A program made the position numbers and the translations under genes. DNA of 64,000 nt from Candidatus Heimdallarchaeota archaeon. Its GTDB lineage: Archaea > Asgardarchaeota > Heimdallarchaeia > Heimdallarchaeales > Heimdallarchaeaceae. The stretch covers positions 12,517 to 76,516 of the forward strand of contig JAEOTE010000025.1 of NCBI GenBank assembly GCA_016839945.1, read 5' to 3'. The stretch's first letter is position 1. Each line of letters opens with the position of its first letter. The notes below the pieces were generated by a model. The model was given only the letters and a program-made list of their open reading frames with translations, was not told the DNA's origin and searched no databases. Shown one piece after another: positions 58,126 through 63,996 of the stretch.

Positions 58126-58497
58126 TTGATGAATGAAGAAGGGTCTATAATTAGCTATGTACTTAGAAAAGAATTTTCTACACGTAATATACACGTAAAT
58201 GAAAATGCAACTTTCAAATTTGGTCGTAAGAAATATATCCTTGATTTTTATCTAGAGGAAGATCACATTGCTATCATAACAATGAATTGGAAAAGGACAA
58301 TACCAACTAACAAACTTCTTCAACTTGAAGAATTAATTAAGTCACTTAACTTAAAGAAATTAGTTCTTATATGTAATTCAATTAGTGGAAACGCTAAGGA
58401 TTTCTTGGCAAGAAGAGATATCCCAATTCAAGTGATCCATCTTAATGAAATAATCTACAAAGAAAAGAGTATTGAGGACTTTATTGTTAGCTCCTAG
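58126..58497 (+). CDS. Small Mrr/restriction-endonuclease-fold protein, probably inactive
   Basis: G.K.YILDFY, WKRTI, LVLICNSISGNAK..L; no clear D-x(n)-E-x-K catalytic set. Confidence 0.6.
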   Translation: MMNEEGSIISYVLRKEFSTRNIHVNENATFKFGRKKYILDFYLEEDHIAIITMNWKRTIPTNKLLQLEELIKSLNLKKLVLICNSISGNAKDFLARRDIPIQVIHLNEIIYKEKSIEDFIVSS

Positions 58498-59524
58498 CTT
58501 TGTCTTTGTGGAAATAGCTTTCTAGAATTGTTTGCTTAGATAATGGATAAGCATTAAAACCTCTTCTTTGTAATTCTGCAGCAAATTTGATATTACTGCC
58601 ATAAATAGTGTATATACTATCAGGATCACATTTCTCGCATATCTCAATTAACTCTGAAAAATCTGCATGGTCACTAATGGGAATGCCATGATCCACATTC
58701 ATTCGAAACTTGTAGTTTGATGATATACACCAACCTGAAAAAGCAAATAATTTTGCATCGTATTTGTTTCTCATATACATATTAAATTCGTTTCTTCCTG
58801 ATCTTAAAGGGGCATAAAGTATCCAATTCTTCTTTTCTTCAAGTATCTTCTTTTCCTCAGCATTTTGGTATGAAATTGCAGGAATACTTCCTTTGATATT
58901 TCTTGAAAGTAAGAGATTATTGATTTTGAAGTTTGATTCATGCATTATGTTTAAGTCTGTTAAGTCTGAAAATGCATGATAAAGCATTTGTGCTTTCCCC
59001 AATGGATACCCCATTAGAACCACAGGAATGTCATCCTCCAGATATTTTCTGATTTCTTCTTTTGTTTCCGATATTATTTGACTGTAGTTTGGAAACTCAT
59101 AATTAGGAGAACCAAATGTACTTTCTATTATAAGAGTATCACATTTCTCGGGTTTGAAAGGTTCAAGAAATCCTTTATCTCTGATAGAAACATCACCAGT
59201 ATACACAAGTTTTCCTTCACTCGAATTAATAACCAAAGCAGTAGACCCTACAATGTGACCACTTGGTTTTTGAACAAATGATGTTCCATTCATTGAATAT
59301 TCTTGGAAAAAAGATGCTCCTTCGAAACTTGATGCAAAATGCTTGACTAACATCTCTGTTGTACTTGAAGTGATAATTTCTGTTGATGGTATTTTTCTAG
59401 GAATATGATCAGAATGAGCATGACTGTAAAAAATTAGAGGATAGAATTTTGAGTTAGTACTATCACAGACAACCTTCCAATCTTTTCCATCTACACAGAT
59501 AACATTAGACAAATAAACCTTCAT
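58487..59524 (-). CDS. Metallo-beta-lactamase / beta-CASP nuclease (no KH domain)
   Basis: SHAHSDH, SGHIVGS, YTGD, ESTFG.P.Y.FP, YPLGKAQ, FSGW, SDHADF. Confidence 0.9.
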   Translation of the reverse strand: MKVYLSNVICVDGKDWKVVCDSTNSKFYPLIFYSHAHSDHIPRKIPSTEIITSSTTEMLVKHFASSFEGASFFQEYSMNGTSFVQKPSGHIVGSTALVINSSEGKLVYTGDVSIRDKGFLEPFKPEKCDTLIIESTFGSPNYEFPNYSQIISETKEEIRKYLEDDIPVVLMGYPLGKAQMLYHAFSDLTDLNIMHESNFKINNLLLSRNIKGSIPAISYQNAEEKKILEEKKNWILYAPLRSGRNEFNMYMRNKYDAKLFAFSGWCISSNYKFRMNVDHGIPISDHADFSELIEICEKCDPDSIYTIYGSNIKFAAELQRRGFNAYPLSKQTILESYFHKDKARS

Positions 59525-59619: not shown

Positions 59620-60273
59620 CTATTTATTTTCCATGATTTCAATTGCTATACTTTTATCTGTAAGTTCTACATCTCGTGCAGCTTTACGGATAGCTTCTTT
59701 AGCAATTTCTACCATTTGATCAATAGTTAAATCTTCAGAGTATTTTTCCTTTAGATATGCAATCGCTTCAGAATCTCCTTCACCAATAGCTTTGGCTTTA
59801 CAGGACATAACTGCACCACCTGGGTCTACAAACTGAAGGTTTGGGCCTGTGTGATCTATACCACCAAAGAGAATTCCAACTCCAAATGGACGCAAACCTC
59901 CTTGTTGAGTAAAGATTTGAACATAATCTGCTATCTTAATAGCCAGTCCTCGTACATCTATTGCTTCTCTATATGTGAGTCTAAAAATCTCAGCTTCAAG
60001 GCGAGAACGACTTATGAGAACTCTTCCATCTGCAGCAACACCCGCAAAAATAGCTTGAATAACATCAGAGATTTTATGAATTTTAAGATCTGGTTCATTC
60101 AAATCAATTAAGCGCAATAATCCTGCTAAAACAACACCATTCTTGCTTTTTATACCGATTGCAATACTTCCTCTACGAACTGATTCACGTGCATATTCAG
60201 TCTGAATAATTCTACCTTCTGGTGAATACATAAGAGGAGATCTATCATATCCCATTGATTGTGGTCCTAACAT
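59620..60273 (-). CDS. psmA: Proteasome alpha subunit (short, divergent)
   Basis: GYDR...YSPEGRI.Q.EYA..SV.RG, ADGRVL, TQ.GG.RPFGV, DP.G, KAIG. Confidence 0.92.
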   Translation of the reverse strand: MLGPQSMGYDRSPLMYSPEGRIIQTEYARESVRRGSIAIGIKSKNGVVLAGLLRLIDLNEPDLKIHKISDVIQAIFAGVAADGRVLISRSRLEAEIFRLTYREAIDVRGLAIKIADYVQIFTQQGGLRPFGVGILFGGIDHTGPNLQFVDPGGAVMSCKAKAIGEGDSEAIAYLKEKYSEDLTIDQMVEIAKEAIRKAARDVELTDKSIAIEIMENK

Positions 60274-60277
60274 TTTT

Positions 60278-60940
60278 TTATTCCTCCATAATACTCTTTA
60301 CTTCTTCAGGAGTAAGTCGCTTTGTTCCTTTTTTGTTAACAACAGCTATATCCATTCCATCGCCAGTAGCAGTATCTCTACTAATGGCAGTTGCTAATGC
60401 TTTTATTGCTAATTTTATGCCTTCTGCTTCTGGAAGGTTTTCTTTCCAAGAGGATTCTAGAACACCATAAGCGATCATAGATCCAGATCCTGTAGATGCA
60501 AAATCTTCATCTGTTATACCACCTGCCATATCTAATGTGTAAACATGAGGTCCTTCTTCGTCTAGACCACATACTAACAAAGCAACCCAGTATGGAAAGT
60601 AAGATCGGTATTGTTCATACATGATTGATGCTAGGAGATTTCCAGCCATTTTTGTAGATGGTGGATAACCTCGTCCAAGCTCATATAGATTGATATTTGC
60701 TCTAGTTAGATTTACTAAGTATTGAGCATCAGATACTAATCCTGCAATTGTCGCTACAGTGAATTTATTTAATTCATGTACTTTCTCAGCCTTCTTTGAA
60801 GCAACAAAACTACCCATTGAAGCCCTTTTATCAGCTGCTACAGCTACACCATCTTTAAATCTGAGTGCAATTGTAGTGGTTCCATGTTTAGGATCCATGA
60901 ATGGGCTATTAGGTGTCCCGTTGAAATTCGGATTATTCAT
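60278..60940 (-). CDS. psmB: Proteasome beta subunit with 20-aa propeptide
   Basis: KHG|TTT cleavage site, AADKRAS, EKV (Lys33), AG.VSDAQ, GSGS..AYGVLE, RDTATGD. Confidence 0.95.
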   Translation of the reverse strand: MNNPNFNGTPNSPFMDPKHGTTTIALRFKDGVAVAADKRASMGSFVASKKAEKVHELNKFTVATIAGLVSDAQYLVNLTRANINLYELGRGYPPSTKMAGNLLASIMYEQYRSYFPYWVALLVCGLDEEGPHVYTLDMAGGITDEDFASTGSGSMIAYGVLESSWKENLPEAEGIKLAIKALATAISRDTATGDGMDIAVVNKKGTKRLTPEEVKSIMEE

Positions 60941-61005: not shown

Positions 61006-61731
61006 TTAGTTATATGGAATTTCGTTAAATTGAATTTCCTCTTCAATATCAACCTCAAAATTGCTTTCGTTGGAGATTTCATTACTAATCCAATTAGAAA
61101 TCAGTTGCATCTCTGAATAACTAGGCTTGATTGAACGATATTCTATATCGATATATTCAGAATTTATGTACATGTGTATTTGATTTCCATTGTGATCTTC
61201 CCAGCATAATTCAAGACTTTGTTCTGCTTCTTTTCTATACAAATATCTGAAACGACTAAACCATTTCTTTTGTAGATATGATGCAAGAAACTCTTGTTCA
61301 TGTGGAGGAATAATCTTCAGTCTTTTCCAATTTGAGAAATATTGATTGTTATGAATGCTTACTGCCTTCTTACTTATTAACTCTTGAAATAACTGTCTAG
61401 TATACTCACTCCCTAAATCAGTTAATTCATAAGTACCGTTCTCGTTTTTGATCAAAAAATCTCTACTTTGTAATCTTTTTAGTGCTTTAGTCAACTGATG
61501 TTGATGCAAAGCTGTAGTCTTCTTCAATCCAGAAAATGAATATGAAATTCGAGAATCAGATAAAGTAAGCAGTAATTGAACCTCAGGAATTGTTAGATAA
61601 TTATAATCATCATTAAAGAAATAATCATAAGGCAAATTATCTAATGTAGGAACCGAATTGTATTTGTTTTCGGCTATAGGATAATCATAATGCCTTTGGT
61701 CAACATTCATTTTCTTCATTATATTTTTCAC
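61006..61731 (-). CDS. Winged-helix DNA-binding protein with C-terminal alpha/beta domain
   Basis: YSFSGLKKTTALHQHQLTKALKRLQSRDFLIK...GTYELTDLG. Confidence 0.78.
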   Translation of the reverse strand: MKNIMKKMNVDQRHYDYPIAENKYNSVPTLDNLPYDYFFNDDYNYLTIPEVQLLLTLSDSRISYSFSGLKKTTALHQHQLTKALKRLQSRDFLIKNENGTYELTDLGSEYTRQLFQELISKKAVSIHNNQYFSNWKRLKIIPPHEQEFLASYLQKKWFSRFRYLYRKEAEQSLELCWEDHNGNQIHMYINSEYIDIEYRSIKPSYSEMQLISNWISNEISNESNFEVDIEEEIQFNEIPYN

Positions 61732-61775: not shown

Positions 61776-63551
61776 TTATTGATTTTCAGTTTTTTTCTTA
61801 GTTTGTTTGCTATCTTTAGAAACTTTATTAGCTTCTTCTTCAGTGTCTAAAACAATTGTTTCTACAGCTGTGGGATGTAAGTATACTTCTCCATCAAGAA
61901 TTGTATAAGGTATTCTTCTTTGATCTATCCAAGGAGCCATCTCTCTAAATTCTTTAAACATATCATTACTCACAATCATACCATTTTCTTCTTCAGCTAG
62001 TCTTAAAATGAACTTATCACCATCTACTCTAGCTGGTAGCATTTTTATGGCGCCTTCTTTTACCAATTTATCCAATCTTCTTTGATCATCTATTTGATAT
62101 CTTAAAGCTGCGTCAGCAACAGTAATTATTTTTCTGAAATTTGCTTTGCTTAACCTGTTTATCATTGTTTCAATATTGCTAATTTTAGGTTTTTCAGAGA
62201 AACTTTTCTCTTCCCATGCAATATTACTCCCATCTAATACAGCTGTTTCTAGAGCATAAGATGTTACGGGATATGTTCTAGGGGCACTATCTCGAGCTCT
62301 TTGTGCAATTCCTTGGACAATGTCTCTAGAGAAATAAGCTATACCAATAAATAAGGAAGTAATAATAATTACGTAAATTATTATGGGATCAAAAGGTGGA
62401 GTAATCTCTTCTTGCGGAAAAACAGTGATAAATGTGAAAATTGTAGGTTGAAGGTTTGAATACCATCTGGTTTCTGAAATAGTAATCCATTCTAAATCTA
62501 TCCAAAATCTGAAGGAGGTTGTACCTTGAGTATGAGGTTCTCCTGATAATGAGAGATCATTGCTTCCAGACAATATTTGAATAGAATTTGGTAATCCACT
62601 TTCCTCAAATGCAATATTAGTACTTTCAACATAAGGAACTACTCTTAAGATTTCAATTTCATTGTTTGTTATTGTATAATGAACCTCACATGTTTCACCT
62701 TCAGTAGCATTAATTGGTAGATTCACATTGTTTACAACAATATCAGGCATGACAATTACATCTAAAGGGTCACTTGACCCAAGAATTTGAACTGCCGGTT
62801 CACCAATAATTCTATAGGAAAAAGTAAATGAGAATTTCTTATACAAGTAAGTTTCTGGATTGAATCTTATCTTATCATCATGTGATTGTCCCTCTGTTAG
62901 TATTAACTCAAAAGAATCAATAAAAGTATTTATTGAACCAGTAGTTCCTGAAGTCTCAATGTTTGTAATTGTAACATTCGTAACCGTTATTCCTCCAACA
63001 TTGGCAATGACATAATCTACTTCATTGATTGTATCTCGAGTCAAATAAGACGGATTTATGGGGAAGTACATTCTCACAATTCCTGTTTGGGAAATTGTTA
63101 GATTAAATGAAATATATTTAATATAAACTTCTGTGGAAGTACTATTTGCAAGAGCTGTAAGGTTATAAATTCCCTCGGGTTGGCTATTAAAGGTAGACCA
63201 AATTACTGTTTCATTAAAAATCTCCGTTGTATTAACAATTAGCTCTCTCCCATAAACAAAATCATGAGATGGATTTGTTATATTGTATTTTATCGTCGCA
63301 TCTGGAATAAACGTACCATTATCATATTGGAATTGAAAATAAATAAGGAGGTTATCTACTCCTCTAACAATTTCTGTTGAATTTAAACTTGCAGAGAAAG
63401 TAGCATTAAAAGAATTTGAATAGTAAAATTCTTCATTGTTATTTTGTTTAGCTATTGTGGAAAATGACTCAGAAGACTCTGTTATTACCAAACTTAACAA
63501 TAAGAAAAGTAAAATCCCTATTGACCTAATATTCAATAGCCTTCCAAACAT
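61776..63551 (-). CDS. Single-pass membrane protein with beta-rich ectodomain and cytoplasmic Zc3h12a/Regnase-type NYN ribonuclease domain
   Basis: Signal peptide, sequon-rich beta-sandwich-like region, TM PIIIYVIIITSLFIGIAYF, then AVLDGSNIA, VADAALRY, DGDKFIL.LAEE..G.IVSNDMFKEF...PWI..RRI. Confidence 0.85.
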   Translation of the reverse strand: MFGRLLNIRSIGILLFLLLSLVITESSESFSTIAKQNNNEEFYYSNSFNATFSASLNSTEIVRGVDNLLIYFQFQYDNGTFIPDATIKYNITNPSHDFVYGRELIVNTTEIFNETVIWSTFNSQPEGIYNLTALANSTSTEVYIKYISFNLTISQTGIVRMYFPINPSYLTRDTINEVDYVIANVGGITVTNVTITNIETSGTTGSINTFIDSFELILTEGQSHDDKIRFNPETYLYKKFSFTFSYRIIGEPAVQILGSSDPLDVIVMPDIVVNNVNLPINATEGETCEVHYTITNNEIEILRVVPYVESTNIAFEESGLPNSIQILSGSNDLSLSGEPHTQGTTSFRFWIDLEWITISETRWYSNLQPTIFTFITVFPQEEITPPFDPIIIYVIIITSLFIGIAYFSRDIVQGIAQRARDSAPRTYPVTSYALETAVLDGSNIAWEEKSFSEKPKISNIETMINRLSKANFRKIITVADAALRYQIDDQRRLDKLVKEGAIKMLPARVDGDKFILRLAEEENGMIVSNDMFKEFREMAPWIDQRRIPYTILDGEVYLHPTAVETIVLDTEEEANKVSKDSKQTKKKTENQ

Positions 63552-63669
63552 TTATACACTTCTATTCTATTCTATTCAATATAGCTTAAAAATGGGGTCT
63601 AATAAGTTTACCGAGAAAAACTTATAACAGAAAAATCGAAAAAAAATCTTCATTTTGAATGAAATTAGT

Positions 63670-63996
63670 TGGACGACGCGATAATACCCCTGATTTTGTT
63701 AGGAAGCCGTCTAGGACCTTCCTAGTAACATTCATCTATGCGCTTTACCCGGTTCATATGAACCCTATTTAAGCTTGCTCCAAGATGATTGACCGTTTCA
63801 ACGTATCCTATATCTTCCTCAGCAAATTATCTCAACAATGTCACCATTGTCTTCATCGCATCCTAGTCAACAGATATAGGTCGTTCCGTTTCTGTTCCAA
63901 GAGCCATGCTCTCACATGGTGGACTTGCGTCCACATCTTTTTACGGAGTCAGGAGGTTCCTCAGTGTAAACCGTAGTTACTCTACCGCCTCGTCCA
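63670..63996 (-). ncRNA. rnpB: Archaeal RNase P RNA
   Basis: Minus strand: P1 TGGACGAGGCG/CGCGTCGTCCA, CR-I GAGGAACCTCC, CR-II ACAGAAAC, CR-III TTGAAACGG, CR-IV AGATGAATG, CR-V ACAAAATCAGGGGTA; P4 CTCCTGA/TCAGGGG. Confidence 0.9.

Follow-up and report, generated by a model that had tools for sequence, protein, structure and literature searches.

The NYN nuclease domain is well studied in animals, where it forms part of Regnase-1, KHNYN and N4BP1. Ribonucleases (RNases) of other types are placed at membranes: IRE1 combines a sensor domain, a single transmembrane (TM) segment, a kinase and a KEN RNase domain and, through regulated IRE1-dependent decay (RIDD), acts at the membrane where secretory mRNAs are translated, and RNase Y contains an N-terminal TM segment as well as KH and HD domains. 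To our knowledge, the cell biology of Asgard archaea offers almost no experimentally defined links between membranes and RNA, and it is their Heimdallarchaeial class that is generally placed closest to eukaryotes among archaea. Here, we analyze a 64,000-nucleotide (nt) stretch of DNA from a Candidatus Heimdallarchaeota archaeon (assembly GCA_016839945.1, contig JAEOTE010000025.1, positions 12,517 to 76,516), hereafter the window, and a gene within it, termed TM-NYN, in which an established RNase domain is set in a receptor-like layout that, as far as we could find, has yet to be described. Full-text searches of the literature did not turn up any archaeal PF11977 or NYN protein with a transmembrane segment. 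The original prediction, made from the sequence alone, knew of no described prokaryotic example; we did not find the layout in the literature either, but prokaryotic PF11977 proteins have been catalogued, with their function unknown, as an evolutionary group of their own (PMC5499597), and other membrane-tethered members exist.

Our findings point to a membrane-anchored NYN endoribonuclease, probably active and encoded by a core gene of a single Heimdallarchaeial order, a reading to which we assign a probability of about 0.7. It draws on the predicted topology of the protein, the family and active site of its nuclease domain, its distribution and the selection acting on its two halves.

Domain layout and active site

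TM-NYN is one unbroken open reading frame (ORF) for a protein of 591 amino acids (aa; Table 1). The predicted signal peptide, sequon-rich ectodomain of ~360 aa, single TM segment, short linker and NYN domain were all recovered by ORF analysis, hydropathy, Pfam profiles and an AlphaFold2 (AF2) model. Exactly two hydrophobic segments are present, at residues ~5-27 and ~389-408, the first of which is kept in nearly all homologs in our alignment. All 11 N-x-S/T sequons lie between these two segments, with none after the second, and the second segment is flanked by an acidic stretch without Lys or Arg on its N-terminal side and by four Lys/Arg within the next 20 residues, so that, by the positive-inside rule, the C-terminus is predicted to be cytoplasmic. 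The AF2 model of the whole protein, built on a 61-sequence alignment and reaching a mean predicted local distance difference test (pLDDT) score of 81, comprises a low-confidence N-terminal helix, three beta-sandwich modules, a helix at residues 389-420, a disordered linker at 415-429, a compact alpha/beta domain at 435-560 and a disordered, charged tail. Hydropathy, sequon placement, charged flanks and the AF2 model all put the NYN domain in the cytoplasm, a predicted topology that, together with the predicted cleavage of its signal peptide, would make the protein a single-pass (bitopic) surface glycoprotein. Its juxtamembrane motif is highly conserved among the homologs, with Y406 being invariant and F407, S408, R409 and D410 each conserved in at least 90%; the C-terminal tail (residues 562-591) is conserved in neither length nor sequence.

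The assignment of the cytoplasmic domain to the Zc3h12a type, which formed part of the original prediction, was borne out by profile, by matches to solved structures and by fold. The RNase_Zc3h12a profile (PF11977), expected at residues ~435-560, indeed matches residues 434-553 (E=2.7e-18; 66.6 bits, the curated gathering score being 23; 69.7 bits in the genome-level search), spans profile positions 2-135 of 154 and is the sole significant Pfam domain in the protein, with an NCBIfam scan giving no meaningful match. In sequence searches of the PDB with HMMER, the domain matched KHNYN and ZC3H12A/B/C chains at 20-28 bits. When modeled alone, it reached a pLDDT of 90.5, and the 23 best PDB matches of this model in Foldseek were all ZC3H12A/B/C or KHNYN (TM-score 0.65-0.72, 24-28% identity, E down to 3e-9), with PRORP1/2 next in line. 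This likeness does not extend to orthology. The cytoplasmic part (residues 412-591) contains no Cys, so that the CCCH finger typical of ZC3H12 proteins is absent, in line with the lack of a zf-CCCH Pfam match, and the NYN domain shows a far higher affinity to prokaryotic relatives (70-234 bits) than to KHNYN and ZC3H12 chains (~27 bits). The absence of the finger and the low affinity to the eukaryotic chains indicate that TM-NYN is Regnase-type by domain but, as judged from sequence comparison, a member of the prokaryotic PF11977 branch rather than a Regnase ortholog. The idea of a special affinity to eukaryotic Regnase, which would have suggested an Asgard origin, was rejected on the same bit scores.

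The motifs highlighted in the original prediction, DGSN (residues 440-443), DKFIL (512-516) and SND (528-530), are invariant or nearly so in the 61 homologs. The active site of Regnase-1 is formed by D141, D225, D226, D244 and D248 (PMC5499597). Reading HMMER alignments to ZC3H12C and KHNYN together with family alignments of the 61 sequences, we mapped D141 to D440, N144 to N443, D226 to D512, D244 to D530 and D248 to E534, all of which are invariant in these sequences. The claim that the catalytic acidic positions are retained therefore holds for four of the five acidic residues of Regnase-1 plus the Asn, but not for D225, whose position falls within a 7-residue deletion; the nearby D510 is conserved in at least 90% of the close family and variable in a divergent subgroup. 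Across TM-type and soluble prokaryotic relatives, D440, N443, D480, D512 and D530 are conserved in at least 90%, D480 being an additional conserved Asp. Given this residue mapping, the deletion and the extra Asp, the active site looks functional yet not identical to that of Regnase-1.

The ectodomain is predicted to consist of three immunoglobulin (Ig)-like beta-sandwiches (residues ~50-152, 159-267 and 271-378; pLDDT ~90). Its 11 sequons compare with 6.4 +/- 2.2 in shuffled ectodomain sequences, 4% of which reach this number, and several positions are strongly conserved among the homologs (N78 in 60/61, N90 in 59/61, N136 in 61/61 and N192 in 57/61). Foldseek searches with the whole model returned generic multi-Ig arrays alone (TM-score ~0.15), namely alpha-2-macroglobulin (A2M) and complement macroglobulin (MG) domains, CFA/I pilins and the S-layer protein SbsB. 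These structural matches say nothing specific about function, and they agree with the weak CARDB, A2M and DUF7507 matches in Pfam and with the CARDB, NPCBM_assoc and S-layer-like look-alikes from an ESM-Atlas feature search, which all scored below 0.9 and serve as leads only. No ligand-binding module was recognizable in this generic CARDB/MG-like Ig array with Pfam, Foldseek or ESM-Atlas, leaving the proposed sensing of an extracellular cue without support. The resemblance of the ectodomain to S-layer, CARDB and MG arrays, together with the missing D225 equivalent, could also mean that TM-NYN is first and foremost a surface or envelope protein, with the NYN domain serving as a non-catalytic cytoplasmic anchor or as an RNA- or protein-binding module. 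We consider this improbable, because no other part of the protein is nearly as conserved as the NYN domain (identity of 0.83, dN/dS ~0.03) and every remaining catalytic position is invariant, a pattern not easily reconciled with an inert anchor.

Family, distribution and selection

A word-indexed search yielded 65 homolog clusters, nearly all of them comprising proteins of 555-648 aa with PF11977, whose named sources are Heimdallarchaeota, Heimdallarchaeaceae and Ca. Heimdallarchaeum aukensis. Searching exhaustively with only the NYN domain as the query, we identified 1,078 relatives. All matches down to ~105 bits (~35 representatives) share the signal peptide, the sequon-rich ectodomain, the TM segment and the NYN domain, and those below this score are soluble proteins. 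The divergent and close groups of TM-NYN proteins align end to end (hhalign, 509 columns, residues 50-574), and the TM-type NYN domains form one clade in a quick IQ-TREE analysis (SH-like approximate likelihood ratio test support of 98). On the strength of this alignment and this single clade, the fusion of ectodomain, TM segment and NYN domain appears to have arisen once, making the whole layout one orthologous family. A search with the ectodomain alone, which covered proteins of 325-1035 aa, found neither NYN-less nor otherwise fused relatives, two contig-end fragments excepted; within this range, no relative carries ectodomain and RNase as separate genes.

We tallied the distribution of the gene in 400 genomes of the phylum, taking proteins of ~570-650 aa as the TM form. 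It is present in 26/30 genomes of the family that includes the window (f1) and in 1/1, 3/3 and 11/12 genomes of three further families (f2, f3 and f4, respectively), which amounts to 41/46 genomes of one Heimdallarchaeial order, mostly in single copy. These genomes are mostly ~80-90% complete, and that of the window contains one TM-NYN copy. Among the other families of the class (f5-f7), 7/36 genomes gave a match, and three families that the tally does not itemize (all listed rows being f31 or f32) have soluble proteins of ~165-200 aa in 74/89 genomes. By these sequence-based counts, TM-NYN thus belongs to the core genes of this order, being inherited vertically and mostly kept as one copy. 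Its GC content (0.29-0.33) is the same as that of the surrounding DNA; given this match, the conserved synteny and the absence of integrase or transposase genes among its neighbors at the examined loci, we rejected the possibility of a mobile or horizontally acquired element.

Several observations add detail to this distribution. Paralog pairs of TM-NYN occur in sister families, with proteins of 645 and 568 aa in genome G044 (L007/L008) and of 569 and 595 aa in G010 (L011/L012), and f4 genomes keep a soluble NYN protein of ~176 aa beside the TM form. A partial homolog of 376 aa (P0008) that is 84% identical to the window protein is labeled Candidatus Thorarchaeota at NCBI; since all other close relatives are from Heimdallarchaeota, this label is probably a binning or labeling error.

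The two halves of the protein evolve at clearly different rates. Mean pairwise identity is 0.83 for the NYN domain, 0.50 each for Ig modules 1 and 2, and 0.38 for module 3. Based on 14 ortholog pairs with dS values of 0.13-1.16, dN/dS is 0.008-0.10, typically ~0.03, for the NYN domain and 0.15-0.56, about 0.25, for the whole ectodomain (module 1, 0.12-0.68; module 3, 0.15-0.47), and a comparison of the window with its closest relative (L055) gives 0.008 and 0.25, respectively. A value above 1 was obtained only once, for Ig2 of the closest pair, where dS is as low as 0.03, and no domain-wide diversifying selection was detected in the ectodomain of the 14 pairs. Both halves are under purifying selection, with the NYN domain constrained like a core housekeeping enzyme and the ectodomain relaxed yet constrained.

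These results also bear on the possibility that TM-NYN is a signal-gated receptor RNase similar in logic to IRE1/RIDD, in which a ligand, a partner cell, a virus or an envelope component clusters the protein and thereby activates the NYN domain. The single-pass receptor layout seen in hydropathy and the AF2 model is consistent with such a role, as are the conserved YFSRD juxtamembrane motif, the extension of the TM helix into the cytoplasm and the 5- to 10-fold faster evolution of the ectodomain relative to the output domain, which is typical of sensors. Moreover, the PIN domains of Regnase-1 require head-to-tail dimerization for activity, a property that would lend itself to control by clustering. 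However, the ectodomain offers only generic CARDB/MG-type Ig folds in place of a recognizable ligand-binding module, is never paired with another output domain and, with a dN/dS of about 0.25, gives no sign of domain-wide diversifying selection. In addition, paralog expansion is minimal, and both the distribution and the gene context are housekeeping-like. The fixed output domain and the mostly single-copy, vertical inheritance are unlike what is typical of sensor or defense families. Signal gating, and with it any sensing by the ectodomain, is thus a tentative explanation that we do not favor. The fully specified version, a one-component receptor RNase in which an extracellular event clusters the Ig ectodomains, switches on the NYN domain and leads to the cleavage of membrane-proximal RNAs, is rather unlikely.

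Gene neighborhood and related PF11977 proteins

On the minus strand of the window, the gene order is rnpB, TM-NYN, the gene for a 241-aa winged-helix protein, psmB, psmA and the gene for a 345-aa metallo-beta-lactamase (MBL)-fold protein. This order is fully kept in L002/L015 (H. aukensis, with the winged-helix gene inverted), L005 and L017, and through psmA in L004, which lacks the MBL-fold gene at this place. The adjacency of rnpB and TM-NYN is thus found in three genera of f1 (L002/L015, L004, L005 and L017) and not in the sister families. The T-run and the subsequent TATA-like element in the spacer suggest that the two genes are separate transcription units and that TM-NYN has its own promoter. 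In public RNA data, of which small shares of the runs were sampled, rnpB is covered by contigs of relatives in the form of separate, high-depth pieces of ~290-310 nt, and a few low-depth pieces of ~150-220 nt fall on TM-NYN in one metatranscriptome, with DNA carry-over being a possible source.

The psmBA genes lie within 0-5 kb of TM-NYN in three families (f1, f2 and f4) despite rearrangements: in L012 (f2), psmB-psmA and the winged-helix gene are beside TM-NYN, and in L013 (f4), psmBA is 5 kb off. The winged-helix gene adjoins TM-NYN in six loci; it always neighbors TM-NYN and psmB in f1 and stands beside psmA in L012. Its product contains a winged helix at residues ~46-117, followed by a C-terminal domain of ~120 aa with no assigned family, and may regulate the proteasome or RNase genes. 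In L008, L012, L013 and L014 (f2 and f4), an AlaX-type tRNA-editing gene in convergent orientation abuts or overlaps the 3' end of TM-NYN, and four loci of the sister families have, upstream, a gene whose ~600-aa product weakly matches PIN. The MBL-fold gene and a convergent 123-aa ORF are both kept downstream of psmA in f1 loci. With rnpB, the proteasome genes and AlaX, the neighborhood is a housekeeping region, not a defense island.

Table 1. Coordinates of TM-NYN, its domains, its neighbors and related loci. Positions without a locus prefix refer to the window, and residue numbers refer to TM-NYN.
Feature	Position	Strand	Remarks
Whole TM-NYN coding sequence (591 aa + stop)	61776..63551	-	Single ORF; 65 full-length homolog clusters
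Signal peptide or signal anchor, residues 1-27; basic n-region, hydrophobic core 10-24	63471..63551	-	Kyte-Doolittle peak 2.39 at residues 5-23
Predicted beta-sandwich module 1, residues 46-155; holds most conserved sequons	63087..63416	-	AF2 pLDDT ~90
Predicted beta-sandwich module 2, residues 156-268	62748..63086	-	AF2; weak DUF7507 match
Predicted beta-sandwich module 3, residues 269-380; membrane-proximal, fastest evolving	62412..62747	-	Weak CARDB and A2M matches at 257-303
TM helix, residues 389-411, ending in juxtamembrane motif Y406-F-S-R-D410	62319..62387	-	Hydropathy peak 2.43; AF2 helix 389-420
Basic extension of the helix into the cytoplasm, then short flexible linker, residues 412-433	62253..62318	-	pLDDT <50 at 415-429; 4 K/R after TM
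Zc3h12a-type NYN (PIN-like) nuclease domain, residues 434-561, with D440, N443, D480, D510, D512, D530 and E534	61869..62252	-	
Variable, charged, disordered C-terminal tail, residues 562-591	61779..61868	-	pLDDT <50
Archaeal RNase P RNA gene rnpB	63674..63992	-	RF00373, 137.9 bits; 122 nt upstream of TM-NYN
rnpB/TM-NYN spacer: T-run after rnpB, then A/T-rich TATA-like element ~30-45 nt before ATG	63552..63673	-	Read from the sequence
241-aa winged-helix (MarR/TrmB-like) neighbor	61006..61731	-	Weak winged helix-turn-helix matches; L012 homolog MarR_2 E=1.6e-6
psmB (60278-60940) and psmA (59620-60273), 4 nt between	59620..60940	-	ORFs; PF00227 in homologous loci
345-aa MBL-fold protein and convergent 123-aa ORF	58126-59524		Weak RMMBL (RNA-specificity) matches; weak Mrr_cat-like match
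AlaX-type gene, ~400 aa	L008:7727-8932	-	tRNA-synt_2c C-terminal part + tRNA_SAD
AlaX-type gene, ~400 aa	L012:7362-8543	-	As above
AlaX-type gene, ~400 aa	L013:5452-6639	+	As above
AlaX-type gene, ~400 aa	L014:2980-4212	-	As above
NYN-AlaRS locus of f31	L019:4028-6371	+	Likewise L020-L022, L028-L031
Gene for P0118	L035:3020-4384		

A third tRNA-related context, in addition to rnpB in f1 and AlaX in f2-f4, is provided by the soluble PF11977 proteins of another Asgard family (f31). These proteins of ~170 aa carry an N-terminal zf-C2HC finger and are encoded ~56 nt upstream of the only catalytic alanyl-tRNA synthetase (AlaRS) gene in 8/8 loci. The AlaRS itself is unusually short (592-599 aa), as it ends without a C-Ala/DHHA1 part, and the f31 loci contain two genes for CitMHS transporters upstream. 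It is conceivable that the Asgard PF11977 branch serves in the processing or quality control of pre-tRNAs, tRNA(Ala) or the transcript of rnpB, with the Heimdallarchaeial form doing so at the membrane. Consistent with this notion, rnpB lies directly upstream of TM-NYN on the same strand in three f1 genera, AlaX-type genes meet its 3' end in four loci of its sister families, the f31 arrangement is invariant, and in structural similarity the protein-only RNase P enzymes (PRORP) come directly behind the ZC3H12 proteins and KHNYN. However, kin share synteny by descent, which reduces these cases to about three independent observations. Moreover, AlaX is convergent with TM-NYN and hence not co-transcribed, the T-run and the TATA-like element separate rnpB from TM-NYN, and there is no apparent reason for tRNA processing to be membrane-bound. 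The genome of the window has its AlaX gene on another contig. Three distant soluble PF11977 genes stand in unrelated contexts, which led us to reject a linkage to AlaRS or AlaX as a general property of PF11977 proteins. A link to tRNA or RNase P is therefore unlikely to explain the family.

Membrane tethering is not limited to TM-NYN. P0118, whose NYN domain is sister to the TM-NYN clade, is composed of a signal peptide, an ectodomain of ~220 aa, a TM segment and an NYN domain, and P0102, P0136, P0141 and P0144 combine PF11977 with one to three N-terminal TM helices. To judge from these sequences, tethering recurs independently in PF11977 proteins of unrelated architecture. In other members, the fusion partner of PF11977 is a STAND/AAA_16 NTPase (P0107) or ChaB (P0104, L034), and P0094 (L033) is encoded beside NB-ARC/TPR proteins, associations that suggest roles in conflict systems for some PF11977 branches. 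In this light, and considering that eukaryotic Regnase-1, KHNYN and N4BP1 restrict viral RNA (for the role of MCPIP1, see PMC5499597), TM-NYN could be envisioned as an anti-virus or abortive-infection effector with an ectodomain that senses attaching virions or a damaged envelope and an RNase that then stops translation. Several points make this anti-phage reading highly improbable. PADLOC left the protein unmatched, with the winged-helix neighbor giving a weak generic WH_III-A match alone; the gene is near-universal (41/46), mostly single-copy and syntenic within a housekeeping neighborhood, rather than patchy or island-borne; no immunity partner is encoded beside it; and the putative effector domain is under extreme purifying selection, with no diversifying selection on the ectodomain.

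Proposed function and comparison with known systems

Taken together, these results favor a membrane-anchored NYN endoribonuclease. The cytoplasmic part would be a catalytically competent, metal-dependent enzyme of the Zc3h12a/PRORP group, held at the inner face of the membrane by a linker of ~25 residues that would keep its active site within a few nanometers of the bilayer. As this short linker would confine the active site to the vicinity of the membrane, its substrates would have to be RNAs that arrive there, and cutting such RNAs is its most likely action. Candidates include mRNAs on membrane-bound ribosomes or, as hinted at by the gene contexts, tRNA-related RNAs. The glycosylated three-module Ig-like ectodomain, in turn, may set the place of the enzyme in the envelope and the density at which it clusters. 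What the sequence analysis shows is the layout with its topology signals, the family and fold, the conservation of the site, the distribution, the single origin of the fusion and the mode of selection, whereas the RNase activity, its substrates and any control of the NYN domain by the ectodomain are what we infer. Four points speak against this reading. It is not obvious why a constitutive RNase tethered to the membrane would require a glycosylated, motif-rich ectodomain of 360 aa, which is under purifying selection as well. The topology and the cleavage of the signal peptide rest on prediction. While D510 might stand in for the missing D225 equivalent, this residue varies within the divergent subgroup. 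Finally, the protein has no RNA-binding accessory domain such as a CCCH finger or a KH domain, which leaves its choice of substrates unexplained.

With a ribonuclease coupled to a surface glycoprotein, an archaeon would have a new means of positioning or controlling RNA cleavage at its membrane. As TM-NYN is a near-universal and strongly constrained core gene of its order, it is probably involved in a basic cellular process and not in a niche form of defense. The question is directly testable, as the cytoplasmic domain is small and, in the model, confidently folded and should be easy to assay.

Among described proteins, the closest in sequence are the soluble prokaryotic PF11977 proteins, some of which carry a zinc finger or a STAND NTPase and which include the zf-C2HC-NYN proteins of ~170-190 aa from Asgard archaea, where soluble members are widespread. 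They belong to the same branch as TM-NYN and share the positions of D440, N443, D480, D512, D530 and R546. What sets the Heimdallarchaeial form apart from them is a fusion of single origin that joined the NYN domain to a signal peptide, three Ig modules and a TM segment. The best structural matches, Regnase-1/MCPIP1 (ZC3H12A), ZC3H12B-D, KHNYN and N4BP1, fall into the same Pfam family, and the equivalents of D141, N144, D226, D244 and D248 of Regnase-1 are kept in TM-NYN. However, these eukaryotic enzymes are soluble and contain CCCH, KH or ubiquitin-binding modules, whereas TM-NYN is predicted to be membrane-anchored with a glycosylated ectodomain, has no cytoplasmic Cys and features both the 7-residue deletion at D225 and the extra D480. 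PRORP, the next-best structural match, and the Rae1/YacP NYN nucleases are part of the same PIN-like NYN superfamily. The tRNA- and aminoacyl-tRNA synthetase-related contexts of Asgard PF11977 genes are reminiscent of PRORP, but TM-NYN lacks a pentatricopeptide repeat or zinc-binding module, and similarity to the PRORP profile is weak, sub-threshold and limited to some relatives.

At the level of cellular placement, TM-NYN resembles the membrane-tethered bacterial proteins RNase Y and PIN.COG4956, the latter a protein of unknown function with four TM helices, a PIN domain and a TRAM domain (PMC5499597), in that all would position a ribonuclease at the cytoplasmic face of the membrane, with PIN.COG4956 also sharing the PIN-like fold. 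Both nevertheless belong to other families, use N-terminal anchors without a large ectodomain and contain accessory RNA-binding domains that are absent from TM-NYN. The likeness to IRE1 is one of logic only: TM-NYN has an extracytoplasmic domain, one TM segment and a cytoplasmic RNase, according to its predicted topology, but its RNase fold is unrelated and Pfam detects neither a kinase nor a KEN domain, so that it is not IRE1-like by descent. Should the receptor reading nevertheless prove true, TM-NYN would constitute an archaeal and mechanistically independent counterpart of IRE1/RIDD.

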